A stretch of DNA of 63,833 nucleotides, the filler included, from a bacterium (GTDB taxonomy: Bacteria > UBP18 > UBA7526), in assembly GCA_030615855.1 (NCBI GenBank). It is 5 parts of 5 records of this genome, joined end to end, with 100 filler letters (N's around TTAATTAATTAA, not from the genome) between each part and the next. Parts side by side here need not be neighbours in the genome. Positions count along the whole stretch, not along the records: positions 26,207 to 38,066 come from JAUWYL010000002.1; 4 more parts are not named here. One strand, 5' to 3'. This document shows, in pieces, positions 26,107 to 59,981 of this stretch. Positions within the stretch are counted from its first letter, which is position 1, and each line of letters starts with the position of its first letter. The translations under genes were made by a program, and so were the position numbers. The notes beneath the pieces are model-generated. The model saw nothing but the letters and a program-made list of their open reading frames with translations, made no database searches and was not told the origin of the DNA.

Positions 26107-26206
26107 NNNNNNNNNNNNNNNNNNNNNNNNNNNNNNNNNNNNNNNNNNNNTTAATTAATTAANNNNNNNNNNNNNNNNNNNNNNNNNNNNNNNNNNNNNN
26201 NNNNNN
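26107..26206. other. Contig linker (N44-TTAATTAATTAA-N44)
   Basis: Six-frame stop spacer flanked by Ns. Confidence 0.97.
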
Positions 26207-26327
26207 CAACACTCATTACTTCCCAAGGAAGGGGAGGAAGAATGCGGCGCAGATAGACAACAACAATAGCCTCTAAATAGCCAAAGGCAATCCCAAAGAT
26301 AGTAACCAATCCCAACTTTAATCTCAT
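26207..26327 (-). CDS. Partial membrane protein (N-terminus only)
   Basis: ATG overlaps the TolC stop; reads MRLKLGLVTIFGIAFGYLEAIVVVYLRR into the gap. Confidence 0.6.
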
Positions 26328-27871
26328 TTTTCTTCCTCAAACAAAATATTTTCTCTCTCCAGAACCGTCCCCTTCGCTTTCTCTAAATCGATCAAGGATT
26401 TATTGTAATCGATTATTGAGCGTAAATAGCCGCTCTGCGATTTGGCCAAATCCTCTTGATACTCTAAGATATCGTGGGTTGTGGTAAGGCCTTCCTTAAA
26501 TCTTTCCTCCTCTGCTGATAGTTTTCTTTCTCGCAGTCTTCTTACTGTTTCTGCTGCTGCTACCCTCTTATAATCGGTATTGGTTCCTCTTACTGCTTCT
26601 CGAACCTGGATAATGATTTTCTGCTCCAGATTTTTAAAATCGATCAAGGCTTTCTCCTTCTCTAAAAGCCTCTTTTTATACTTACTCCTTGCTCCTCTAT
26701 TCCCTAAGGGATATTCAAAAGAGAGGCCAGCTGACCAAGACTCATACTCACCTTTACTCATTTCATCAAAGGCATCATTATAGTGTCGATCCAGGCCGTT
26801 CAGGCCGAAACTTCCCTTCAGATCCAAAGTGGGCAAGCGTTCATTCTTAGCTACCTTTATTTTAATATCCTTATTCTTTAGATCGATCTTCTCCTTCTGG
26901 TAATCAGGTCGCTTCTCGAAAGCGGTCCTTACGCTCTCCACGAGATCAATCTCTCTTGCTTCTAAAGGAGGCTTATCCAAAGGGATAATATCGAAGTTCC
27001 AGAGTTTTGGATCCTGGATGAGATTGGTGACTATCTTCAGATTATCCTGGGTATCGGAGAGCATTTTTTGGGCAATAATAACCTCTTGCTTCCGAGAAGC
27101 AACCTCGGCTTCTGCGGCCAATACCTCGAGCTGGGAAACGGTTCCTGCCTTCATCCGTGCTTTATTTGTCTCCAATAAATCCTCGGCTCGCTTTAAGGAA
27201 AGTCCTTTGACCTTCAAATTCTCAAGAGCAAAGACCAGTTCCCAGTAGGCCTTCTCTGTCTTAGTCACAGTATTAATTACCTCTTCTCTCAACTCTTCAA
27301 GTGAGATATTCTTATTATTCTTAGCAATGAGGATATCTGCCCTATTCACCTCAATACCAAAATCCTTTAATAATGGTTGAGTAAGGGTAAAGGTAAGGCT
27401 TGAGGTATAGGCCGGATTGGGGCTCTGGGAAGCAGGAAGCCGGTTGGTCTCCAGGCGATTATTCTTAAATGCTAAATCATAATCCCCACCAGTCAGGAAT
27501 TTCTGCTTTAGACCGGCATTGAAATCATAATTCTTCTGTACCGAATCAAAAGTGCCCGTAGTCGTAGAAGAGGTAGTGTGGGTTTCAGATTTGTCTGCTG
27601 AAATATCCAAGGTGGCTGTAGGATCAAAGTCTGATTTTGCCTTTATAATTTCGGTCTCCTTGATCTGGGGCACAAGACGAGTAGCGGCCACATCCAGATT
27701 ATTCTTGAGAGCAAAGAAGATACAGTCCTGAAGGGATAAAGAAACGGTTCCCTTCTCTCCCTCAAGATTTTCTAAAAAAGAAGAAAGCTCTTGAGGCTCA
27801 GCAAAAATAGACTTGGAGAAAAGGAGGGCAAAAAAGATAGAAATGAGAATATAGATTATTCTTTTAATCAT
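26324..27871 (-). CDS. TolC-family outer-membrane efflux protein
   Basis: Signal peptide, LSLQDCIFFALKNN, LTQPLL, two OEP repeats. Confidence 0.92.
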   Translation of the reverse strand: MIKRIIYILISIFFALLFSKSIFAEPQELSSFLENLEGEKGTVSLSLQDCIFFALKNNLDVAATRLVPQIKETEIIKAKSDFDPTATLDISADKSETHTTSSTTTGTFDSVQKNYDFNAGLKQKFLTGGDYDLAFKNNRLETNRLPASQSPNPAYTSSLTFTLTQPLLKDFGIEVNRADILIAKNNKNISLEELREEVINTVTKTEKAYWELVFALENLKVKGLSLKRAEDLLETNKARMKAGTVSQLEVLAAEAEVASRKQEVIIAQKMLSDTQDNLKIVTNLIQDPKLWNFDIIPLDKPPLEAREIDLVESVRTAFEKRPDYQKEKIDLKNKDIKIKVAKNERLPTLDLKGSFGLNGLDRHYNDAFDEMSKGEYESWSAGLSFEYPLGNRGARSKYKKRLLEKEKALIDFKNLEQKIIIQVREAVRGTNTDYKRVAAAETVRRLRERKLSAEEERFKEGLTTTHDILEYQEDLAKSQSGYLRSIIDYNKSLIDLEKAKGTVLERENILFEEEK

Positions 27872-27875
27872 CTAT

Positions 27876-28517
27876 TTACCCTTTCTTTATTCGCGTTGAT
27901 TCGCGTCTTTTCTCTGACCCCTTCAAAAATAGTTCCATAACCAGAGGGGCGTTAGAGACTAAGGATTCTTTCTCTTTACTTAACATCCACTGGAAGGCAA
28001 GAGCATCTATTATTCCTCTTAAAGTAGCCGCCACCTTCTTGGCATCCAGGGCTTTAAATCTGCCTTCCTTTATTCCCTCTTCAATCACTCGGGCAACGAC
28101 GTCGATATACTTTAAGTAGCGGTCCATAATCCTCTTGCGCAACTCATCCTTTAATCCCAATTCGAAACGGCTCGATTCTGAAGTAATAATTTTAAAGAAA
28201 TCTCTATTGGCCTCGTAGAATCCTAACTGGTGCCTAGTTATAGCACTAAGTTTTTCTACTGGACCTTCTTTTTTCTTAGCTTCTTTCCGTATAAGATTCA
28301 TTAGATATTCTGTCTTCTCCTCTACCAAGGAATAGAAGAGTTCCCTTTTGTTCTTAAAGTAAAGATATATCGTTCCCTTAGCCAGCTCTGCTTCTTTAGC
28401 AATCTCGTCAATGGTTGCCTGATGAAAACCTTTCTGGGCAAAGACCCTCTGAGCAGCTTCTAAGATCTCTCTCTTTCTTGCCAACCGTTCCCTTTCCTTT
28501 CTACTTAATTTCTTCAT
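27876..28517 (-). CDS. TetR/AcrR-family regulator (FadR/YsiA-like)
   Basis: [30 protein letters not shown]. Confidence 0.93.
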
Positions 28518-28539
28518 CCCTATACTCCTTAGTCATTTT

Positions 28540-28592
28540 ATGACTGACTGTTCATTCATTTTAATAATAACATGAAAAAACCCCCTTGTCAA
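28540..28592 (-). promoter_or_regulatory. Promoter TTGACA-17-TATTAT with downstream TetR operator ATGAATGAACAGTCAGTCAT
   Basis: -35 at 28592-28587, -10 at 28569-28564; imperfect palindrome 28540-28559 resembling the Bacillus FadR box. Confidence 0.72.
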
Positions 28593-28828
28593 GTCTTTTC
28601 TGATTCCTAAAAAAGTCACGGATTTAGACAGATTTAAGCGGATTTAAACGGATTAACCATTGGAAAGGAGACTCCGTCTGCATCCGCTATAATTCGTTTG
28701 CATCTTTTTAGAAATCAATTTTTGCAACGCGAATAAAAAAACTCAAAGAAAAATCCTCGGGCATCTAAATAAAGTCTGGACTCTTGTTCTCTTTCTATCC
28801 ATTTCTCTTCATCCTAGATAACTCTTAA

Positions 28829-28868
28829 TTGTTGCAACTTGTGTCCGATCGGACAATAAGTGCAACAA
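28829..28868. repeat. 40-bp composite palindrome, copy 1
   Basis: TTGTTGCA-ACTTG-TGTCCGATCGGACA-ATAAG-TGCAACAA. Confidence 0.92.
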
Positions 28869-28879
28869 AATCTTGACTG

Positions 28880-29638
28880 TTAGAAAGTCCTCTCTACTGC
28901 AGTTAATAACTCCCGAGCCTCTGCTTCTCGCCAATCTTCAGGAAGAAATCTTTGAGGTAATTTAGGGTCAGAGTATAAAATTTTCCTAAATTCTATTCTG
29001 GCGAGGTGCTTAAAGGCATTATTGATCGCTGGCTTCTTCAGACGCTTGTTCTTTAATATCTTTCTTATTCTCTCTTCCCATTTAATAATGAACTCTTCAT
29101 ACTCTTTATTCACACTATCTAATTGGGGCCAGGTCTTATAAATTAGTTCGTGTAATCTCTTATCTTCCTTCAGATACCCTTCAAAGGTCCAGATATATTC
29201 TCGATACTTCTGGAAGGCAAGTAATTTTTCTACTTTTTCCAAAACATTATGAGGCGAAATCCAAACGCTGCGATGCATCCTTCCAAATCCTAATTTTTTA
29301 AGTTCTTGACGCAGTTCTCTACGCGCTTTATGTTCTTCCTCTGGAATATCAAAAGAAACCAGACGCCACTTACCATCCCATCTCTTTTCTTTCTCTGGGA
29401 CAATAAGAGATAGAGTTTCCAACAATTCTTTTCCTTTCCTGCTTAGTAGAAAAGTAATTCCTTTCTTTTTATTCCCTCTCTTTATATAGCCTTCCTTCTG
29501 TATCCGGCTTAAAGTAGCACGGGCACTGGAAATAGCAAGAACTTCTGTTAGATACTTCCAGATAGCACGGTGAGGAGTAAATAAAAATTCACCAATGCTA
29601 TCTATGAGAATTAACAGTTCGTCTCTTTGAGAAAGCAT
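28880..29638 (-). CDS. PaaX-family regulator (wHTH, Cas2-like central domain, PaaX C-terminal domain)
   Basis: RATLSRIQKEG wHTH, WDGKWRLVSFDIPE..LR..LGFG..SVWISP, DPKLP..FLPEDW. Confidence 0.88.
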   Translation of the reverse strand: MLSQRDELLILIDSIGEFLFTPHRAIWKYLTEVLAISSARATLSRIQKEGYIKRGNKKKGITFLLSRKGKELLETLSLIVPEKEKRWDGKWRLVSFDIPEEEHKARRELRQELKKLGFGRMHRSVWISPHNVLEKVEKLLAFQKYREYIWTFEGYLKEDKRLHELIYKTWPQLDSVNKEYEEFIIKWEERIRKILKNKRLKKPAINNAFKHLARIEFRKILYSDPKLPQRFLPEDWREAEARELLTAVERTF

Positions 29639-29666
29639 ATCTCCACCTCCTTAATAAAGAAGATAA

Positions 29667-29706
29667 ATGTTGCAATTTGTGTCCGATCGGATAATAAGTG
29701 CAACAA
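29667..29706. repeat. 40-bp composite palindrome, copy 2 (same orientation as copy 1)
   Basis: ATGTTGCA-ATTTG-TGTCCGATCGGATA-ATAAG-TGCAACAA. Confidence 0.92.
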
Positions 29707-29731
29707 AATTAAAATGACGAGTTATTGCTAT

Positions 29732-30208
29732 TTAGTGGTGAAGGAGGGCTAAGATCTTGGCCCAGGTAATGATTCCCTCTATCATCGATACCCAGATGAT
29801 AGTACCGATGAGGTTTCCCAGGGCAAAGAGAAAAAAGCTTTCCTTATATTTCAATTTGAAGATAAGGGTTAAGAATAGGATGTTGAACGGTCGACCTGCG
29901 GTGGGAATGGCGGGCATGAGGAAGAGACTCGCCTTTCCCATGGGTCTTGCCCAACCTATCATTTTTGACCTCGAGATTCTTTCCTGAAGGGATAGTGCCT
30001 TCTCCTTTGCTAAAGAAAGAAACCTCAGACTGAAGGTTCTCTCGTAAGCCCAGTAGAGGATAAGGAGGACTAAGAGGTCCATAAGATAGGCAGAGATGAA
30101 GATGAGATACCCATTGAGATTAAAACCCACAGCATAGGGAACAGAGGCCTTCCTTCCCCAGAGCAGATGTAAGCCGATATATCCTAAGATGATACTAAAT
30201 AATCTCAT
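29732..30208 (-). CDS. Small multi-pass membrane protein, function unknown
   Basis: 158 aa, about 4 hydrophobic segments, overlaps upstream stop (ATGA). Confidence 0.7.
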   Translation of the reverse strand: MRLFSIILGYIGLHLLWGRKASVPYAVGFNLNGYLIFISAYLMDLLVLLILYWAYERTFSLRFLSLAKEKALSLQERISRSKMIGWARPMGKASLFLMPAIPTAGRPFNILFLTLIFKLKYKESFFLFALGNLIGTIIWVSMIEGIITWAKILALLHH

Positions 30209-30828
30209 CTTCTTTGCCTGATAAAGAGAGGCAAAACTTTTACTTTGAAGAGGGGAAATTTCTTTATTGCTGCTAAAGCAGGGAGAATAAAGGTGAGAGC
30301 AAATAGGGCTGAGGGCTCATGGAAAGTGAACTTGGTGAGAAAGGGAAGGATGGTCATACCCACCACCGCCCCTCCAGGGATCGTAGATTTGAACTTAGCA
30401 AAGGCGAATACCTTCCAGAATATCCCAGCAGCTAAAGCACTTATAGGTAGGATGATGAATAACTCACGAGGTAAAAGGCAGAGCAAGACTCCAATACTAC
30501 AGGATAGGCCTGCTCCTCCTCGAAACCGATAATATATCGGCCAGTTATGACCGGCCACGGTTAGGCTTGCTATTAAGACTACTACTTTATAATCGAGGTG
30601 TAATACCTTTAAAGCAATATAGGTAGGAATAATCGCTTTTGTCACATCCAAGATCAATACTAAAGCACCTGCTGGTCGGCTGACCGCTCTATATACTGTC
30701 GCTGCTCCCGCGTTCCCATAATCTTTGACATCGATGCCCTTTAACTTCTTGCCAATCAGATAGGCAAAGGAGATAGAGCCTAGTAAATAAGTTATAATAG
30801 CTAAAGAAACAGTTTCTAAAAGTTTCAT
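30205..30828 (-). CDS. PlsY-like acyl-phosphate acyltransferase paralogue 3
   Basis: YLLGSI, GNAGA, DVTK, GHNWPIYYRFRGGAG. Confidence 0.85.
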   Translation of the reverse strand: MKLLETVSLAIITYLLGSISFAYLIGKKLKGIDVKDYGNAGAATVYRAVSRPAGALVLILDVTKAIIPTYIALKVLHLDYKVVVLIASLTVAGHNWPIYYRFRGGAGLSCSIGVLLCLLPRELFIILPISALAAGIFWKVFAFAKFKSTIPGGAVVGMTILPFLTKFTFHEPSALFALTFILPALAAIKKFPLFKVKVLPLFIRQRR

Positions 30829-31640
30829 CCCTTCTTCCTCCACCATCTCGCCTTGGGAGGCTCAAATAGCTCATCGCTTAAGCCGATATTTATCTTTAAG
30901 TCCTTGAATGTTCTCGACTCGGCAAACCTATCCCCTTCCTCATATATGGCATGCTGGATGGGTAGGAACTTTTCTTTATCTACCCAGAGGATCTCCTTGG
31001 TAATGGGATGTTTTCCCTCTTTTTTCTTGGGAATCATCACCAAGCGATAGCATTCCCTTTCCTCGATTTTCTCTATTCCCATAAGTTCTATCTTTCCCTC
31101 TCTATTGTAATGGTTGGCCCTTCCGATAAGACCTCTTAGGTTGCATTCATCGAGTCTCAAGCCATGTCTCGGTGAGCGGACGATGGCAGAATCTGCATCA
31201 AAGGTAAAGACCGCAAAGGGAACGTATCTATGATGGGTTCCCTTTACCTTTCCATCTCGGAAGACGGCCTCTGCCCCTTCCTCCACCCCCTGAAGACCTA
31301 TGGCATGCATCATATTCGGTCTTTTGAAGGAGAGTCTCAAAACCTTAGGCTTATACATCTTTTTCCCAAACCTTGAGAGCTGGTGAGTAACGCAGATGCA
31401 CTGATAGTCTTCCACCTTCTCATAGGCCTCTTTCATCTTCCTCAGGATGTCCTGGACGGTAATTTCTTCTTTAATTTCAGGCTCTGAAATAACCTCTTTT
31501 ATGGAGACTTCAGGAATGGAGACCTCCGGAGCAAGAACCTCGGGAGGTAATTCCACCCCAATCCTAGGTCTCTGGGAAACGATAAAAGGAATGAGAATAA
31601 GGATAAGTAATAAAAGAAGAAATATCCTAACAACAACCAT
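30825..31640 (-). CDS. Membrane-anchored LolA-fold (lipoprotein-sorting-like) protein
   Basis: N-terminal TM anchor, LSFKRP, LWVDKEKFLPI, FKDLKINIGLSDELF C-terminal signature. Confidence 0.7.
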   Translation of the reverse strand: MVVVRIFLLLLLILILIPFIVSQRPRIGVELPPEVLAPEVSIPEVSIKEVISEPEIKEEITVQDILRKMKEAYEKVEDYQCICVTHQLSRFGKKMYKPKVLRLSFKRPNMMHAIGLQGVEEGAEAVFRDGKVKGTHHRYVPFAVFTFDADSAIVRSPRHGLRLDECNLRGLIGRANHYNREGKIELMGIEKIEERECYRLVMIPKKKEGKHPITKEILWVDKEKFLPIQHAIYEEGDRFAESRTFKDLKINIGLSDELFEPPKARWWRKKG

Positions 31641-31830
31641 TTCTGCTCCTTAAAGATATGATAGCATACCAATCTGAATATTGCAAAAAATTTCTTGTTT
31701 CCAAATTCTTATGTTTTTTGATAAAAGTCGGGCGCGTTTCACTTGCCCCCTCTAATAACAGAAACCCGCCAAAAAGGCGGGCATTTAAAACGAAGAAAAA
31801 AATGAGATAGGTTCACTTCCTTTAAAGCGA

Positions 31831-31870
31831 ATGTTGCACTTATTGTCCGATCGGACACAAGTTGCAACAA
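31831..31870. repeat. 40-bp composite palindrome, copy 3 (inverted relative to copies 1-2)
   Basis: ATGTTGCA-CTTAT-TGTCCGATCGGACA-CAAGT-TGCAACAA; 39/40 to the reverse complement of copy 1. Confidence 0.92.
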
Positions 31871-31883
31871 AACTTCCCAATAT

Positions 31884-32486
31884 CTATCTTCTTTCTGTGA
31901 ATCTCTTTATGGGGGGAATCTGTCTTATGATGACTATTCCAAAGAGAAGAAGGGTGAGAATGAACAATGGATGGGACTCTTTGAATCTCATCCAGGTTAA
32001 AATAGGCATCAGGATATAGCCGATCATTGCTCCATAGGCCACAGTAGCCTTCTTTTTCTTCAAGATAAGCCACAGGCCTAGGCCAACTATCAGAGCAACC
32101 AGGAAAGCGATCCCAAATTCCTTAGGCAATAAGATAAGAAGTGCGCCCATGGTTGTTCCCAGGCCCATTCCTCCTCTAAATTGTAGAAATATCGGCCAGC
32201 TGTGACCAACGGTGACTGCTAAAACGACTAAGATTATCGGGATATACTGCTCTTCAGGGAGGAAGAGTACCTTTGCTATATATACCGGAAGGGCTGCCTT
32301 ACCGATATCCAAGAGGGCAACCAATGCCCCCCATTTAGGACCCAACTGTCTCCAGGCACCGGCTACTCCTGGATTATCATACTTCCTGATGTCGATCTTC
32401 TTTACCGCTCTTCCCAAGATATAGGCCCAGTTTATAGAGCCTAATAAATAGGCAACAATGATCATGAGGATGGTTTCGACAATCAT
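31884..32486 (-). CDS. PlsY-like paralogue 2
   Basis: YLLGSI, DIR..DNPG, DIGK, GHSWPIFLQFRGGMG. Confidence 0.85.
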   Translation of the reverse strand: MIVETILMIIVAYLLGSINWAYILGRAVKKIDIRKYDNPGVAGAWRQLGPKWGALVALLDIGKAALPVYIAKVLFLPEEQYIPIILVVLAVTVGHSWPIFLQFRGGMGLGTTMGALLILLPKEFGIAFLVALIVGLGLWLILKKKKATVAYGAMIGYILMPILTWMRFKESHPLFILTLLLFGIVIIRQIPPIKRFTERR

Positions 32487-32508
32487 TTCTTTTCCTTCCA
32501 CTAAATTT

Positions 32509-33141
32509 TTACTTCTTACTTTCTTTTAGCGATTCCTTAATTATGGGAATAAGTCTTTTGGGGACATTAAGGACTTGTCTTACGGCAGCTAAGAAAAGTA
32601 AGAAGAGACTCAAAACAAATAAGGCTTGCGGTCTATAAAAGATCTTAACCATAAAGGGAAGGAGGAGTAATGCTGCGGCTCCCCCACCTGGGGCGGTGGA
32701 CTTGGCCTTCTTAAAGATGGGTAGTTTCCACATAATGAAGCCGGCCAGAATGCCGAAAGGTAGAACGATGGCCAATGCCTTGGGCATGAGGCAGGCCAAG
32801 ATTCCTACACTACAGGCTAATCCTCCTCCACCTCTGAACTTAAAGAATACGGGCCAGTTGTGGCCTACTATTACTGCTACTGCCACAAAGACCACCGGCC
32901 AATAATTGGGCAAAAAGATCTTTGCAGCGATTAGGGTAGGGATGACTGCCTTGCCCACATCTAAAATACCGACTAAAGTGGCCCATTTCCCTCCCATGGT
33001 GCGGTATATCGTTCCTCCTCCTGGATTCCCATAATCCCGGATATCGATTCCTCTCACTATCTTGGCAATGATATAGGCCCAGAGTAGAGAGCCCAATAGA
33101 TAACTTCCCACAACCATCAGAATAACTTTAGTAGTAAACAT
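32509..33141 (-). CDS. PlsY-like paralogue 1
   Basis: YLLGS, DIRDYGNPG, DVGK, GHNWPVFFKFRGGGG. Confidence 0.85.
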   Translation of the reverse strand: MFTTKVILMVVGSYLLGSLLWAYIIAKIVRGIDIRDYGNPGGGTIYRTMGGKWATLVGILDVGKAVIPTLIAAKIFLPNYWPVVFVAVAVIVGHNWPVFFKFRGGGGLACSVGILACLMPKALAIVLPFGILAGFIMWKLPIFKKAKSTAPGGGAAALLLLPFMVKIFYRPQALFVLSLFLLFLAAVRQVLNVPKRLIPIIKESLKESKK

Positions 33142-33238
33142 TCTCCCTCCTATAAATAGTTAACAAGAGACGTTATGCGTTTATGCGTTGACGCGTTTAC
33201 GCGTTCCGCATTTCGCGTTCCGTATAACGTATCAACTT

Positions 33239-34105
33239 TTATTTGACTAAGTAGTATCCAATCCCCCAGCCACCTGGACCAAGGTGAACGATCTCACATC
33301 CCATCTTTCCAATAATGATTTCTTTACAGTCAATGTTCTTCTCTAAGGCTTCTTTTAGGTCTTTCACTGCCTCTGGATTGTCTGCCACAGCAGCGATCAA
33401 GGCCTTTATCTTCTTGGCACCGGACTTCTCCATATCAGCCTTTATGGTCTCAATCATCTTCTGATTCACCTGTTGGATATTCCTTCCCTTTCCTAATGGT
33501 TCTATGGCCTGTGTCCCATACCTCATAATGAGTATCGGGATGACCTTCATTAAAGAGCCAAGAAGGGCCTTGCCTTTGCCTATTCTTCCTCCCTTATGGA
33601 GATACTCCAAATCGGGGAGGGCTAAGATAAGGGTACTTTTAGAAGCAACATCTTGGGCGATCTTGGCCACCTCATCCTTGTTCTTTCCTTCCTTGGCTGC
33701 CCGGGCAGCCTCCAAGATCACTAACCCTATGGGATGGGCAGTGAGCATGCTATTGACCACAGCCACATCTGCTCCTTCTACCTTATTTATTGCCTCCTTT
33801 GCGGCATCAAGAGTTGGTTGGCTAAATATTCCTCCTGCCATGGTGATGTTCACAATGGACTTCCCTTCTGCTGTCGATTTTCGATAGACTTCAGCAAACC
33901 TCTCGACGTTTATTGCTGCTGTCTTGGGAAAACTCTTCGATGCCTTCACCTTTGCCAAGAAATCCTCGGGACTAATGGTCTCCCTGACCCGATACTCTTT
34001 CCCCTCTAAAGTAACTGGAAAGTGAAGCACGTTTATTTCATACTCCTTCCATAGATTATCAGGCAATCCCTGATTACAACCAGTAACAATCGCTACTTTC
34101 TTCAT
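33239..34105 (-). CDS. DegV/FakB fatty-acid-binding protein
   Basis: FPKTAA, LEYLHKGGRIG, HLGPG. Confidence 0.9.
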   Translation of the reverse strand: MKKVAIVTGCNQGLPDNLWKEYEINVLHFPVTLEGKEYRVRETISPEDFLAKVKASKSFPKTAAINVERFAEVYRKSTAEGKSIVNITMAGGIFSQPTLDAAKEAINKVEGADVAVVNSMLTAHPIGLVILEAARAAKEGKNKDEVAKIAQDVASKSTLILALPDLEYLHKGGRIGKGKALLGSLMKVIPILIMRYGTQAIEPLGKGRNIQQVNQKMIETIKADMEKSGAKKIKALIAAVADNPEAVKDLKEALEKNIDCKEIIIGKMGCEIVHLGPGGWGIGYYLVK

Positions 34106-34170
34106 CTTTTTTACCTCCTTTTAATTTTTACTTTTTCATTTTTAATTTTAATTTCTTCGCTCACCCCCTT

Positions 34171-34482
34171 CTATCCTACAAAAGCATATGCTCCAGTGGC
34201 TAAGCCGAGCATCCCGCCTTCAAAGTAGGCCACTCTCAAAGTCTCTGCCAATTCTTCCTTTGTTGCTCCAGATTCTCTTGCCATACGAGATAAATGAGAG
34301 ACAGCACCTGATTGGCCCCTTACTGCATTTATTGCTAAGGCAATCAAGACCTTATACTTTGTATCCAGAGCCCCCTTCTCAAAGACCTTATCCATATCCT
34401 GCATTACAAGTTTAAAGAACTCCGGGTCCTTCTCCTTTATCACCTTAAAATTCTCTGGAATCTTCTTCATAAACTTGGCCAT
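34171..34482 (-). CDS. Carboxymuconolactone decarboxylase/AhpD-like protein without CxxC
   Basis: GALDTKYKVLIALA..H...A.ESGATKEEL. Confidence 0.82.
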   Translation of the reverse strand: MAKFMKKIPENFKVIKEKDPEFFKLVMQDMDKVFEKGALDTKYKVLIALAINAVRGQSGAVSHLSRMARESGATKEELAETLRVAYFEGGMLGLATGAYAFVG

Positions 34483-34531
34483 AAAACCCCCTTCTGATTT
34501 TACTTTCTTACTATCCTACTTTTCTACTTTC

Positions 34532-35383
34532 CTACTTTATCAAATAGGCTATCCCCCAGGACTGGGGCCCGGTATGGACTATACCACAGCAGCCGGTCTC
34601 CCTTAAGGTTATTTCTTCGGGATGGAATCTCTCTTCAACCATTCTCTTCAGTTCCCCTGCTGCCTCTTCATTATCGGCATGCTCTATGATACATTTTATT
34701 CCCTTTGCTCCTCTACTTTCCATATCAGATTTAATGGTTCCAACCATCTTCTCATTTGCCTGGGTGGGACTCCTTCCCTTTCCTACCGGGGTTATTACAT
34801 TCTTTGCGGCGATGATGGGAATGACCTTCATCAAAGAGCCCATCAAGACCTTAGCCTTCCCAATCCTTCCCCCACGGTAAAGATACTCCAGGTCAGGAAG
34901 GGCGCGGAGCAGGTTAGTATTCTCTCTGGCCTTTCGGGCAACTTTCAAGACCTCCTCTTTCGATTTCCCCTTTCTTATTGCCCGGGCTGCCTCTAAGATG
35001 ACCAATTGTATTCCACCTATAATCTGTTCGGTATCAAATATTTCGACCTCTACTTCAGAGACCATTTCCTTTGCTTTCTGGGCAGAATCATGGGTGGCGA
35101 TGGACAAACCAGAGGACATATGCATGGAAAGCACCGCCTTCCCTTCCTTCATAAAGGCCTCATAGGCCTCTGCTAATTCACCAATGGGAAGAGCAGCCGT
35201 CTTGGGAAACTCCTTTGATTTCTTCACTTTCTCCAGAAACTCTTTTGGCTGGATATCCATCCCATCCCGCAAGGCCTCACGACCTAATATTATGGGAAAA
35301 GGAATGACCCTTATTCCATACTCTTTAATCAAAGGAGAGGGAATACCAGCAACGCTTCCCGTAACAATACCTATTTTTGTCAT
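34532..35383 (-). CDS. DegV/FakB fatty-acid-binding protein
   Basis: FPKTAA, MSSGLS, LEYLYRGGRIG, HTGP. Confidence 0.92.
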   Translation of the reverse strand: MTKIGIVTGSVAGIPSPLIKEYGIRVIPFPIILGREALRDGMDIQPKEFLEKVKKSKEFPKTAALPIGELAEAYEAFMKEGKAVLSMHMSSGLSIATHDSAQKAKEMVSEVEVEIFDTEQIIGGIQLVILEAARAIRKGKSKEEVLKVARKARENTNLLRALPDLEYLYRGGRIGKAKVLMGSLMKVIPIIAAKNVITPVGKGRSPTQANEKMVGTIKSDMESRGAKGIKCIIEHADNEEAAGELKRMVEERFHPEEITLRETGCCGIVHTGPQSWGIAYLIK

Positions 35384-35407
35384 TGCAATTTTTACTTTTC
35401 TACTTTC

Positions 35408-37264
35408 CTACTCTACTGATATGATATAATAGTAATGCGGCTGTCCTCCGAAGTAAAGCTGGACCTCGAGGTTAGGATACTTTTCTTTTACCTGGTTCAG
35501 TAATTTATTGGCTTTTCTTTTTCTCGCTCCTTTACCATAGTAGAGGGTGACGATACTATCGCCTTCAGCTACCATCTCCTTTATTAAATCCAGAGCCACT
35601 CTCTGAGGCTTCCTTCCCTTTACTTTTATCTCTTTATGATAAAGACCGATGACCTCCCCCTTTCTAATCTTAAGTTCCTTATACTTAGCAATCCTGGCTG
35701 CCTTTGCTACCTGACCAGTCTTTATTCTTCCTAAGGCCTGACTCATAGATTCCTTATTCTCTTCTATGCTTCCCTCTGGATTATAATCCATCAGAGCCGC
35801 CAGTCCCTGAGGAATGCTCTTCGCAGGAATTACTTCTACCCTCTTCTTGCTCAACTCCTTGGCTTTCTCTGCTGCCGGAATGATATCCCCATCATTGGGT
35901 AAGAGGATAACGTTCTTTGCTTCCATTTTCTCTATGGCCTTACTTATATCCTCTACAGAGGGCTTCAATTTTTTTGGCCCTCCCAGTATCTCATCCACAC
36001 CCATGCTTTTCAGAATTTTACTTAAGCCTTCTCCCGTAGATACCGCAACGATTCCTAATTCTTTAACCTTTACTGCTTCTCCAACCTCCTTCTCCATCAA
36101 GAGGGTCTGGTGCTGCTTATCCATATCGTCTATCTTTACCTTATCTACCTCCCCTAAAGTAGCAGCATATGCCTTTACCTTATCCGGCTCATTGGTATGG
36201 ATGTGGCACTTTGCCAATTCCGAAGAACCAACCACAATGGCACAGTCCCCATGCCTTGCCAATTCATTCTCAATCTCTTTCAAGACTAAATCCTTCCCCT
36301 TGATCAGAAATTCTGTACAGTACTTATACTTTAGTTCCCTTTCCCAAGTGTCAACCGCTCTCTGGGCAGTGCTTCTCACCGCCTTAATATCTAAGAGACC
36401 TCTCTTCTGAATGATCCCCAGGACCTTCTCCCAGGTTCCCACTACCCTCCTTATGCCCGTGGCATTTTTGAGTTTCTGTAAGGGGAGGCGGGAGAGTTTC
36501 TCCTTTGCTGCTTGGATGGTCTTGGCAGCAATGGTCTCAACCTCCTTGATGTCCTTCAGTTCCCCTCCCCGAATGCCAACCAGGATGCTTCGCCAAGTGT
36601 TAATGGTTTTTGCAACCGTAACCTCGACCTTTGAAATTTCCTCCAATGGCTTGCCCTCTATGAGCCTTAAAACGCCTTCTAAGATATAGACAAAGCCCGC
36701 TCCCCCAGCATCAACTACTCCGGCATCCTTCAGCACAGGAAGCATCTCTGGTGTCTTCTCTAAAACTTCTTGCGCTTCTTTATGGGTCTCTCTCAATATT
36801 TTAGCGATATCGCTTTCTTCTTTCGCAATTTCAAGGGCTCTCCTTGCTGATTCCTTGGCTACCGTGAGCATAGTTCCTTCCACTGGTTCCCTCACTCCAC
36901 CATAGGCAGCCTCTGCTCCTTTAAAAAATGCCTGGGCCAATTCTTTAGCCTCTACCCTCTTCTTTCCCTCAAGACCCTTTGCCAATCCCACCAGGAATTG
37001 GGAGAGAATTACTCCCGAACAACCCCTTGAAGCCATGACACTACTTGTGCCCACTTCTTTAGCAATAGAGGATAGGTCTCTATCCTTAAGTTCCTTCATT
37101 GCTTCCACCGCTGCCTTCAGAGTCAAGGACATATTAAACCCCGTGTCCCCATCTGGAACGGGAAAGACATTCAGGTTATTGACCACCTCCATCTTAGAGG
37201 CCAGCCAATCATTAGAAGCAGATAAAGCCTTAATCAACCTTCTTCCGTTACAGTGCTTAATCAT
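35408..37264 (-). CDS. DAK2-domain fatty acid kinase FakA-like protein
   Basis: NVFPVPDGDTG, EGTMLTV, VVDAGG, YCTEF, HIHT, LPN, GGQPHY. Confidence 0.93.
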   Translation of the reverse strand: MIKHCNGRRLIKALSASNDWLASKMEVVNNLNVFPVPDGDTGFNMSLTLKAAVEAMKELKDRDLSSIAKEVGTSSVMASRGCSGVILSQFLVGLAKGLEGKKRVEAKELAQAFFKGAEAAYGGVREPVEGTMLTVAKESARRALEIAKEESDIAKILRETHKEAQEVLEKTPEMLPVLKDAGVVDAGGAGFVYILEGVLRLIEGKPLEEISKVEVTVAKTINTWRSILVGIRGGELKDIKEVETIAAKTIQAAKEKLSRLPLQKLKNATGIRRVVGTWEKVLGIIQKRGLLDIKAVRSTAQRAVDTWERELKYKYCTEFLIKGKDLVLKEIENELARHGDCAIVVGSSELAKCHIHTNEPDKVKAYAATLGEVDKVKIDDMDKQHQTLLMEKEVGEAVKVKELGIVAVSTGEGLSKILKSMGVDEILGGPKKLKPSVEDISKAIEKMEAKNVILLPNDGDIIPAAEKAKELSKKRVEVIPAKSIPQGLAALMDYNPEGSIEENKESMSQALGRIKTGQVAKAARIAKYKELKIRKGEVIGLYHKEIKVKGRKPQRVALDLIKEMVAEGDSIVTLYYGKGARKRKANKLLNQVKEKYPNLEVQLYFGGQPHYYYIISVE

Positions 37265-37467
37265 CCTTTACTCCGTTCTAAGCACAGATATTCACAGATT
37301 ATTTACAGATTAGCACAGATCACAGATACTGAATGCTGGATCATCGATGGACGTAACCGTTTAACGATAACCGAAACGAGCTGCGCAACCGCAACCGATT
37401 ACCGATAACCGATCACTAATCACTTTCTCACTTTCCTATTATCTTACTCTCTTACCTTCCTACTTTC

Positions 37468-38066
37468 CTAAGGTGCTTGATCCATCCATCTCCTGAAGAT
37501 CCAGAAGAAATCCTCGGGATACCTTAAGATGGCGTTCTCTATTATTTTGGTCAACTTCTGGACATTGATTAAGAGGTCCTTCTTTTTATCTCCGGTCTTC
37601 TCCAGTTCTACCTCAGGCTCGATGACTATCTTATGTGTATTATCTCTCTGGCGGACGATGAACATGGGAACGATGGCCGCTCCGGTTCTCCTGGCTAATA
37701 CAATAGGCCCAGGCATGGTAGCTGCTGGATGGCCAAAGAAATCGACCACTACTCCACCTTTAACTGGGATTCTATCGAACTGTAAGAATAGTATACTATT
37801 CTTTCTTAACCAATCGATACATCTATGGGTGCAGGCATGGGGAGGGAAGGCGGGGATGGTATAGGCACCCATCCTTCTTCTCATATCTGCCAATAACCTG
37901 GCTACCCTATCACCTAAGATATCACGGGCAATATAACCAAAGGAATAACCTTCCCGGTTCATCTTAATAGATATCATCATGAAGTTTCCGATGTGAGCAG
38001 AGAGGCCGATTATTCCTTTACCTTTTGCTAAGGCTCTATCCAGGTTCTCTTTCCCTTCTATTTTAA
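37468..38066 (-). CDS. LpxL/lysophospholipid acyltransferase-family protein, 5'-truncated
   Basis: Frame open to the gap: IEGKENL..KGII.LSAHIGNF; VDFFGHPA, GAAIVP, PEDFFWIFRRW. Confidence 0.85.
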
Positions 38067-54771: not shown

Positions 54772-54871
54772 NNNNNNNNNNNNNNNNNNNNNNNNNNNNN
54801 NNNNNNNNNNNNNNNTTAATTAATTAANNNNNNNNNNNNNNNNNNNNNNNNNNNNNNNNNNNNNNNNNNNN
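54772..54871. other. Contig linker
   Basis: N44-TTAATTAATTAA-N44. Confidence 0.97.
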
Positions 54872-59881: not shown

Positions 59882-59981
59882 NNNNNNNNNNNNNNNNNNN
59901 NNNNNNNNNNNNNNNNNNNNNNNNNTTAATTAATTAANNNNNNNNNNNNNNNNNNNNNNNNNNNNNNNNNNNNNNNNNNNN
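59882..59981. other. Contig linker
   Basis: N44-TTAATTAATTAA-N44. Confidence 0.97.

Follow-up and report, generated by a model that had tools for sequence, protein, structure and literature searches.

An 11.9-kb contig from a little-known sediment bacterium (lineage UBP18; UBA7526) carries the genes of a FakA-type fatty acid kinase and of DegV/FakB-type fatty-acid-binding proteins, together with three genes for proteins of the PlsY fold family, here called PlsYa, PlsYb and PlsYc, in which the pocket for glycerol-3-phosphate (G3P) appears to have been rebuilt. It is proposed, tentatively and at somewhat less than an even chance, that this is a fatty-acid salvage operon in which acyl-phosphate feeds acyltransferases whose acceptor is not G3P. 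The locus takes up the entire contig, which fills positions 26207–38066 of the window, i.e. the whole stretch of 63,833 nucleotides that was analysed.

To our knowledge, PlsY is the only family shown to use acyl-phosphate as an acyl donor onto a lipid backbone, and we know of no PlsY reaction other than the conversion of G3P to lysophosphatidate. In Bacillota the FakA/FakB route converts exogenous fatty acid to acyl-phosphate, which then passes to PlsY/PlsX.

A preliminary description of the locus gave one co-oriented run of genes: an LpxL-like acyltransferase, FakA, DegV, a CMD-like protein, a further DegV, two PlsY-like proteins, a LolA-like protein, a third PlsY-like protein and a membrane protein, then PaaX, TetR and TolC. 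This order was confirmed; every gene of the contig was called on the minus strand and Pfam agreed for each gene named. The cluster had been assigned the span 29732–38066; 38066 is the end of the contig, and the LpxL-like gene is cut there.

The three PlsY-fold paralogues

32509–33141, minus strand: PlsYa (GGGG; Gln at 177; Asn at 180); PF02660 102.6 bits, TIGR00023 85.8 bits
31884–32501, minus strand: PlsYb (GGMG; Gln at 177; Pro at 180); PF02660 131.7 bits, TIGR00023 106.7 bits
30205–30846, minus strand: PlsYc (GGAG; Lys at 177; Leu at 180); PF02660 103.3 bits, TIGR00023 89.0 bits

All three fall under the TIGR00023 equivalog cut-off for PlsY (137.2 bits). Judged by sequence, they belong to the PlsY fold family and fail the tests that define PlsY itself.

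Comparison with the Aquifex aeolicus enzyme (5XJ5–5XJ9) and modelling upheld the fold. The AlphaFold2 (AF2) model of PlsYb, with a predicted local distance difference test score (pLDDT) of 90.3, matched Aquifex PlsY 5xj5–5xj8 in Foldseek with template modelling (TM) scores of 0.80–0.85, root-mean-square deviations of 2.6–2.8 Å and 26–27% identity, and Aquifex PlsY accounted for all five matches with E below 0.001. The likeness thus extends to the seven-helix fold as well as to the Pfam family. The GTG called as the start of PlsYb probably lies too far upstream; its orthologues start at a Met five codons later (MI[IV]KT...).

The functions of the active-site residues are taken from Li et al. 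(2017, PMC5700162). In Aquifex PlsY the phosphate of G3P is clamped by Ser35, Arg45, Lys104 and Asn180, and its 2-OH is bound by Ser142 and His177. On the donor side, the acyl-phosphate "phosphate hole" is made up of the backbone of residues 104–107 and His92, Thr41 hydrogen-bonds to the acyl-phosphate carbonyl, and Asn37 has been proposed as the oxyanion stabiliser. Catalysis is described as assisted by the substrate and as needing no catalytic base. When Ser35, Lys104, His177 or Asn180 was substituted singly, 75–99% of the activity was lost, and replacement of Thr41 by Ala left about 5%. The same source gives conservation of 92.5% for Ser35, 94.8% for Lys104, 91.4% for His177 and 89.1% for Asn180; as these figures are below 100%, variants at the four positions do exist.

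The motif pattern of the preliminary description was reproduced in the alignment. YLLGS, Asn37/Gly39, Asp59..Lys62 and GH(N/S)WP are kept in all three paralogues, GGKG is swapped for GGGG in PlsYa, GGMG in PlsYb and GGAG in PlsYc, and the HxxNIxR motif is present in none of them. Of the G3P-binding residues, Ser35, Lys104 and His177 are lost throughout, Arg45 is the sole clamp residue kept in all three, and Asn180 is kept by PlsYa. Ser35, whose loss adds to the preliminary description, is taken out by a 2-residue deletion common to the three proteins. Lys104 is replaced by Gly (PlsYa), Met (PlsYb) or Ala (PlsYc) and His177 by Gln, Gln or Lys in the same order; at position 180 PlsYb has Pro and PlsYc has Leu. 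The Ser142 region is swapped for a longer loop, in which the alignment is uncertain and which contains an invariant Lys/Thr pair (K147 and T149 in the numbering of an alignment of 13 paralogue sequences).

The donor side is better preserved. His92, GGxG and Asn37 are invariant in 13/13 paralogue sequences, and Gly102, Gly103 and Gly105 are retained in all three proteins of the window. Thr41, by contrast, is Gly in PlsYa and Ala in PlsYb and PlsYc; the donor site is therefore not fully kept, and the earlier statement that donor binding is retained stands for His92, the GGxG loop and Asn37 but not for Thr41.

The replacement residues are conserved inside each paralogue group of the 13-sequence alignment. 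A word-index search with PlsYb returned 78 homologues, 20 of them at 74–91% identity and the others at no more than 44%. The Ser35 gap, Met104 and Gln177 were kept in all 18 full-length close homologues, with Pro (17) or Leu (1) at position 180, whereas 50 of the 58 other matches were canonical at positions 35, 104, 177 and 180.

Fatty acid kinase genes

35408–37264, minus strand: FakA-type fatty acid kinase catalytic subunit, 618 aa, with Dak2, FakA-like_M and FakA-like_C domains
34532–35383, minus strand: DegV/FakB-type fatty-acid-binding protein 1 (DegV1); PF02645 231.7 bits, TIGR00762 250 bits
33239–34105, minus strand: DegV/FakB-type fatty-acid-binding protein 2 (DegV2), the conserved copy; PF02645 196.2 bits

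The genes resemble those of the Bacillota Fak route in encoding a three-domain FakA (PF02734, PF21645 and PF13684) and DegV proteins homologous to FakB, and acyl-phosphate is the presumed product here too. FakA scored 559.7 bits against TIGR03599 (cut-off 396.1). Both DegV copies passed the PF02645 and TIGR00762 cut-offs and are homologous to solved FakB structures; for DegV2 the best solved relatives were DegV/FakB structures, with E from 5e-29 to 1e-15. The differences are that the kinase genes share an operon with PlsY-fold genes, in a diderm bearing lipopolysaccharide (LPS), and that the stricter equivalog models were missed: FakA reached 418.9 bits against NF038248 (cut-off 975) and the DegV copies about 118 bits against the FakB1 model NF038249 (cut-off 350). 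FakA is also longer, with about 100 residues more than the TIGR03599 model between its Dak2 and middle domains (residues ~200–311). By eye, this segment seems to contain three similar "xxTWxxxL" stretches. The FakA of a distant locus, L029, has 612 aa.

FakA is 87–93% identical to the copies in three relatives (L001, L003 and L004; see below), with ratios of nonsynonymous to synonymous substitution (dN/dS) of 0.055–0.066, and DegV2 is 81–93% identical in L002–L004. DegV1 had no orthologue at 80% identity or above in L001–L004 and was found in the window only. A prediction of the complex between PlsYa and DegV2 scored 0.00, which is informative neither way.

Conservation of the cluster and lipid genes of the relatives

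The cluster was found in four species-level genomes, namely L001 (UBP18 UBA7526) and the metagenome-assembled genomes L002–L004, with proteins 75–97% identical to those of the window. A metagenome contig, L058, has part of it: the LolA-like protein, PlsYc, the small membrane protein (PF06695-like), TetR and TolC.

FakA, DegV2, PlsYa and PlsYb were found in each locus reaching their positions; L002 begins within DegV2 and hence does not reach FakA. In L001 (7802–9452) DegV is split into two open reading frames (ORFs) and PlsYa is broken by Ns, which looks like draft-assembly damage and not gene loss. The LolA-like, PlsYc and PF06695-like genes are present in the window, L001, L002, L003 and L058 but not in L004. 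DegV1 and PaaX occur in the window only, the LpxL-like gene in the window and L001 only, and TetR, or TetR-TolC, comes after the cluster in the window, in L002 and in L058. The neighbourhood put forward in the preliminary description is therefore conserved in its FakA, DegV2, PlsYa and PlsYb genes, but not in the LpxL-like, PaaX and DegV1 genes. Pfam identified a PadR regulator and an outer-membrane barrel (PF13557) upstream of the cluster in L001; look-alike PadR and barrel ORFs lie upstream in L003 and a PadR-like ORF in L004, both picked out by eye from the ORF list.

Relaxed selection had been named in the preliminary description among the signs that would refute its proposal. It was not seen. 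Against the window, and over the four relatives' genomes, the paralogues have dN/dS of 0.075–0.157 (PlsYa 0.075–0.157; PlsYc 0.137–0.143), similar to the neighbour genes, and are under purifying selection.

There is no canonical plsY in the 64-kb window. The preliminary description had asked whether one lies elsewhere, and an additional PF02660 gene is indeed present in 4/4 relatives, the genomes for which this holds, with 179–186 bits over the full profile. The protein (L005) scores 177.7 bits against TIGR00023, above the cut-off of 137.2, and carries GSGNVGATN, GGRG and HxxNIKR. Its gene sits between that of a CDP-alcohol phosphatidyltransferase (pgsA-like) and gpsA. A fusion of cytidylate kinase and a PlsC-type acyltransferase (Cmk-PlsC; PF01553) was found in 4/4 relatives, PlsX in 3/4, several ketoacyl synthases of type II fatty acid synthesis (FAS II) in 4/4 and LpxC in 5/5. 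In the fusion the acyltransferase stands behind the kinase, in a protein of 426 aa (L017:772–2052). By gene content, then, the relatives are LPS-bearing diderms with an ordinary PlsX/PlsY/PlsC route.

With a canonical PlsY, a PlsC-type enzyme and FAS II synthases encoded in 4/4 relatives and PlsX in 3/4, the three paralogues are surplus to that route. For the same reason the idea that they stand in for a missing PlsC, PlsX or FAS II was rejected, since Cmk-PlsC (4/4), PlsX (3/4) and the synthases (4/4) are all encoded.

The fatty acid kinase genes beside the paralogues are the only ones found in the relatives' genomes, and DegV genes were found inside the cluster only. Neither DegV nor the paralogues occur in a fifth genome from the phylum (0.8 Mb); this co-absence is weak evidence because that genome is incomplete.

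Two other features of the relatives' lipid genes were seen. The genomes of ~1 Mb (G001–G005) have 5–8 PF03279 (LpxL-family) matches each, some of them in tandem arrays of three or four (e.g. G002:C80:651–4487 and G003:C11:3300–7097), an unusual expansion of late-acyltransferase-like genes. G001–G004 also have adjacent pairs of FabF-like ketoacyl synthases beyond the main FAS II copy (e.g. G002:C43:3252–5492 and G004:C18:3241–5234), possibly the sign of a specialised lipid or polyene pathway.

The wider PF02660 family

When a profile of the 13 paralogue sequences was searched exhaustively, 16006 proteins were recovered with E no higher than 0.001. Scores were 308–329 bits for the three paralogue groups and 212 bits for one further group, followed by a continuum from 152 bits down. 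Of the 149 best representatives, 92 deviate at one or more of the four G3P-pocket positions, some of them through truncation or alignment gaps, and 11 share the Ser35 gap. Because 92/149 deviate in this way, a large part of PF02660 now labelled "PlsY" may do something else.

Canonical PlsY proteins, including the canonical UBP18 copy, formed one clade with support of 98 (FastTree, 151 rows) and 99 (IQ-TREE quick, 68 rows). The paralogues lay outside this clade, and PlsYa and PlsYc paired with support of 97 and 85 in the two trees respectively. The Ser35-deletion group had support of 92 in the FastTree tree, and the IQ-TREE quick tree required two changes of label, which is compatible with one origin or with more. 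The subfamily, whose signature the paralogues share, is recognised by the following: D/G-x-P-G-(A/G)(A/S)(G/T)-x-x-R in place of GSGNxGATNxxR, GG[GMAQ]G for GGKG, a longer loop followed by P-x-P-x-G, and no C-terminal HxxNxxR.

Genomic context was taken from a scan of metagenome contigs, in which 589 stretches encoding relatives were obtained (600 candidates) and the best 80 were classified by residue state: 42 belonged to the deletion subfamily, 30 were canonical, 7 were other and 1 was UBP18-like. Among these 80, gpsA was on the locus in 26/30 canonical cases against 0/42 for the subfamily, or 19/22 against 0/29 if only loci of at least 6 kb are counted. No conserved neighbourhood of the subfamily emerged from the Pfam content of up to two genes on each side at 22 loci, the commonest family making up 4 of 78 neighbour proteins.

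Some distant loci do combine PlsY-like and Fak genes. L029 (4510–10618) encodes, in one direction, an ABC1/UbiB-type kinase, a patatin-like lipase, FakA, DegV and a PlsY-like protein, an order that suggests a deacylation/reacylation cycle. L032 has FakA, DegV and a PlsY-like protein. L039 (5774–11422) has a thiolase, a HAD hydrolase, a Ser35-deletion PlsY-like protein, a FadL/TodX channel and a DegV-Dak2 fusion; this single-chain FakB-FakA fusion runs off the contig. Other atypical PlsY-like domains are fused to DegV (P0134), to FakA modules (P0271) or to a polysaccharide deacetylase (L096:13463–14764). Further fusions were to a molybdopterin oxidoreductase (P0167) and an ApbA-type reductase (P0267), and some of the fusions may be gene-calling artefacts. 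No fused form of the Ser35-deletion subfamily was seen by eye among the five longer proteins found, and a 482-aa form in L054 and L055 was set aside as an ORF-extension artefact.

Other genes and layout of the contig

37468–38066, minus strand: C-terminal part of an LpxL/PatA-family acyltransferase; PF03279 74.8 bits, profile positions 158–293 of 295
34171–34482, minus strand: small CMD/AhpD-like protein, cysteine-free; PF02627 51.7 bits
31764–31782, minus strand: terminator-like hairpin in the PlsYb/LolA-like gap, followed by a promoter-like site at 31687–31658
30825–31640, minus strand: LolA-superfamily (DUF1571-like) protein with an N-terminal hydrophobic segment; PF17131 31.5 bits, PF07608 28.6 bits
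29732–30208, minus strand: small membrane protein, PF06695-like; PF06695 25.9 bits, below the cut-off of 30.7
28880–29638, minus strand: PaaX-like regulator with PaaX_M and PaaX_C domains; window only
27876–28517, minus strand: TetR regulator with a YsiA/FadR-type C-terminal domain (TetR_N, TetR_C_4)
26324–27871, minus strand: TolC-type outer membrane efflux protein; PF02321 161.7 bits, 117 nt from the contig end
38067–38166, no strand: artificial junction between contigs (N44, TTAATTAATTAA, N44), with another such linker at 26107–26206

The genes from FakA through PlsYa are separated by 24–97 nt, and PlsYa and PlsYb by 7 nt. A gap of 243 nt follows, which contains the hairpin and the promoter-like site. 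Beyond it, the LolA-like and PlsYc genes overlap by 22 nt and the PlsYc and PF06695-like genes by 4 nt. Two transcription units, split after PlsYb, may be envisaged, but this is only a positional hint because counts of promoter-like and terminator-like sites were not above those in shuffles. The best promoter-like site (28592–28564) lies upstream of TetR.

The LolA-like protein, on present evidence including its model, would belong to the LolA superfamily (LolA, LppX, LprG, the N-domain of RseB/MucB, DUF1571). Its Pfam matches are barely above the cut-offs of 30 (PF17131) and 27 (PF07608), and its Atlas neighbours are DUF1571, LolA and MucB_RseB proteins at 0.93–0.94. The AF2 model is poor (pLDDT 54). 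Its top structural matches were nearly all of the LolA superfamily, at Z 5–9, with LppX at 9.1, LprG at 8.9, LprF at 8.6 and LolA-family chains at 8.0 and 7.6; with a pLDDT of 54 these matches are only supportive. The protein differs from known members in having, by eye, no lipobox cysteine after the hydrophobic segment, in having no LolCDE nearby and in the overlap of its gene with a PlsY-fold gene. Close relatives of it were found in this lineage only.

The neighbours of the PF06695-like protein in the Atlas carry PF06695 at 0.93, and it is 87–97% identical in L001–L003 and L058. PF06695 is an uncharacterised "small multidrug export" family. The only full-length LpxL-like orthologue is that of L001 (306 aa; PF03279 136.6 bits). 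The LpxL-like protein lies under every NCBIfam equivalog cut-off, with PatA second in the ranking, and carries a "SAHIGNF" motif whose His is a candidate only for the catalytic His. The CMD-like gene lies between the two DegV genes, is 90–99% identical in L001 and L003 and is absent from L004; a redox role for its product is unlikely because there is no cysteine in the translation. In L002 and L058 no PaaX-like gene separates the PF06695-like gene from TetR.

The window is made up of five contigs joined by four linkers of the form N44-TTAATTAATTAA-N44. The remaining two are at 54772–54871 and 59882–59981. Since N linkers separate the contigs there, the adjacency of alaS to TolC and that of a Thi4-like gene to the LpxL-like gene are artificial.

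Proposed pathway

In the salvage pathway proposed here, FakA and its DegV/FakB carrier or carriers would phosphorylate bound free fatty acid to acyl-phosphate, as their family membership suggests. PlsYa and PlsYb, from the same unit, and PlsYc, from the next, would still transfer the acyl group from acyl-phosphate. Such transfer should persist because His92, the Gly-rich loop and Asn37 are kept and the chemistry needs no catalytic base. The pocket that positions G3P seems to have been rebuilt, differently in each paralogue. With Ser35 deleted, Lys104 turned into Gly, Met or Ala, His177 into Gln, Gln or Lys, and position 180 occupied by Asn, Pro or Leu, an acceptor other than G3P is indicated. 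The accepting group is probably a hydroxyl or an amine that carries less charge or lies within the membrane. More speculatively, the acceptor could be a lysolipid, which would require Arg45 for its phosphodiester and space at the former clamp. As the pockets differ from one paralogue to the next, three acceptors, or three positions, may be involved.

Housekeeping lipid synthesis would be encoded elsewhere in the genome, as in the relatives. Through the unit of LolA-like, PlsYc and PF06695-like genes, one paralogue could be coupled to the movement of a hydrophobic molecule across the periplasm, in either direction. Salvage or recycling appears likelier than export of a new lipid because of the outer-membrane channels (PF13557; FadL in L039), the lipase of L029 and the FadR/YsiA-type TetR; the genomic contexts in the relatives likewise lean towards fatty-acid uptake or recycling over export.

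LplT/Aas of Gram-negative bacteria combines retrieval of lysophospholipids with their re-acylation, Aas using acyl-ACP (ACP, acyl carrier protein) from its own synthetase domain. It serves as a working analogy, without homology, in that retrieval, fatty-acid activation and re-esterification at the inner membrane may be brought together in a comparable way; the donor here would differ in being acyl-phosphate.

Several points weigh against the salvage proposal. The loss of Thr41 in all three paralogues (Gly, Ala and Ala) makes use of acyl-phosphate plausible and not assured, and one canonical UBP18 PlsY likewise has Ala at this position. Arg45 and the Lys/Thr pair would allow an acceptor that carries a phosphate, even G3P itself in a different binding mode. 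Evidence for a canonical plsY comes from relatives only, in draft genomes of 0.8–1.3 Mb. The gpsA contrast has a nominal Fisher p of 1e-15, for loci that are not phylogenetically independent. Lastly, FakA/DegV genes stood beside the subfamily in only 3 of the 29 loci of at least 6 kb among the best 80 and no neighbour family recurred, so that the Fak link is lineage-specific.

Alternative explanations

It could be that the paralogues are isozymes acting on G3P, glycerol-1-phosphate or lysophosphatidate and reserved for exogenous fatty acids delivered by Fak, with the phosphate held by Arg45 and new basic residues. The invariance of Arg45, the new invariant Lys/Thr pair in the loop replacing the Ser142 region and the position of the paralogues directly behind FakA/DegV, whose known client is PlsY, all fit such a role. 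It is nevertheless considered unlikely. Three or four of Ser35, Lys104, His177 and Asn180 are changed together, positions at which, in the mutant data of PMC5700162, single changes in Aquifex PlsY cost 75–99% of activity; a canonical PlsY and a PlsC-type enzyme are already present in 4/4 relatives; the subfamily is next to gpsA at none of its 42 loci among the best 80; and all three proteins score under the TIGR00023 cut-off. A different possibility is that the paralogues are not acyltransferases at all, and act as a docking site or receiver for loaded FakB, as an acyl-phosphate hydrolase, or as a carrier of acyl-phosphate or fatty acid. The dismantled acceptor pocket and the loss of Thr41 would be explained in this way, and the fusions of PlsY-like domains with DegV and FakA show physical coupling in other family members. 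Against this, Asn37, His92 and GGxG are kept under purifying selection, which fits retained chemistry, and three distinct, individually conserved pockets are hard to square with mere docking, so that this explanation seems very improbable.

The mycobacterial lipoproteins LppX, LprG and LprF transport complex acylated lipids outward. As they are the first of the LolA-superfamily matches to the LolA-like model, and the LolA-like, PlsYc and PF06695-like genes overlap, the locus might also be read as an export pathway, in which a single non-G3P scaffold receives acyl chains from the paralogues one after another and a further chain from the LpxL-like enzyme, and the multiply acylated product is flipped by the PF06695-like protein and exported by the LolA-like protein. 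A multiply acylated product shuttled by the LolA-fold protein was already put forward in the preliminary description, whose interpretation is supported in part, namely for the fold, the retained donor-site elements and the loss of most G3P-holding residues. Three paralogues with three different pockets, and TolC downstream, would suit such an assembly line. An obligatory one is disfavoured because the LpxL-like gene and the LolA/PlsYc unit are variably present: the former is in only 2 of the 5 loci reaching its position, and L004 keeps FakA, DegV, PlsYa and PlsYb without the LolA-like, PlsYc and PF06695-like genes. Fatty-acid intake or recycling is suggested instead by the outer-membrane barrel upstream in the relatives, the FadL of L039 and the patatin lipase of L029. 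TetR-TolC, with a promoter-like site to itself, resembles a separate unit, and the LolA-like model has a pLDDT of only 54. Export in this form is regarded as distinctly unlikely. Finally, the window consists of short draft contigs joined by linkers, and in L001 DegV is split and PlsYa interrupted by N, which would be expected if the cluster were a chimera of assembly or binning or a set of decaying duplicates. The same order in four independent genome assemblies and partly in L058, some 20 close PlsYb clusters from several public sources and dN/dS of no more than 0.16 leave next to no room for such an artefact.

Conclusions

The salvage proposal may be extended to a wider, rather doubtful one. 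UBP18-type bacteria would carry out lipid remodelling that is independent of ACP and coenzyme A, in which acyl-phosphate from FakAB is used by three neofunctionalised PlsY-fold enzymes, from a widespread subfamily marked by the Ser35 deletion and a GGxG loop lacking Lys, to esterify three non-G3P acceptors (for example lysophospholipids or other envelope lipids), with transport between the membranes by the LolA-like and PF06695-like proteins. On this equally doubtful view of their supply, the fatty acids would be taken up through an outer-membrane channel or released from the envelope.

No account of PlsY members with a non-G3P pocket, or of operons of Fak genes and PlsY paralogues, was found in the literature; supplementary surveys of PlsY (e.g. 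Supplementary Fig. 6 of PMC5700162) lay outside the scope of that search. The new elements here are a signature for the subfamily and a prediction, open to test, as to the acceptor. The locus is a clean natural experiment, in that relatives with a canonical PlsY, a PlsC-type enzyme and FAS II synthases (4/4) and mostly PlsX (3/4) keep three extra PlsY-fold genes under purifying selection. Once identified, the acceptor would define a further class of lipid reactions that depend on acyl-phosphate, and a widespread annotation would be corrected. If the remodelling proposal, doubtful as it is, were true, acyl-phosphate would be a general bacterial acyl donor and not the curiosity of one enzyme.

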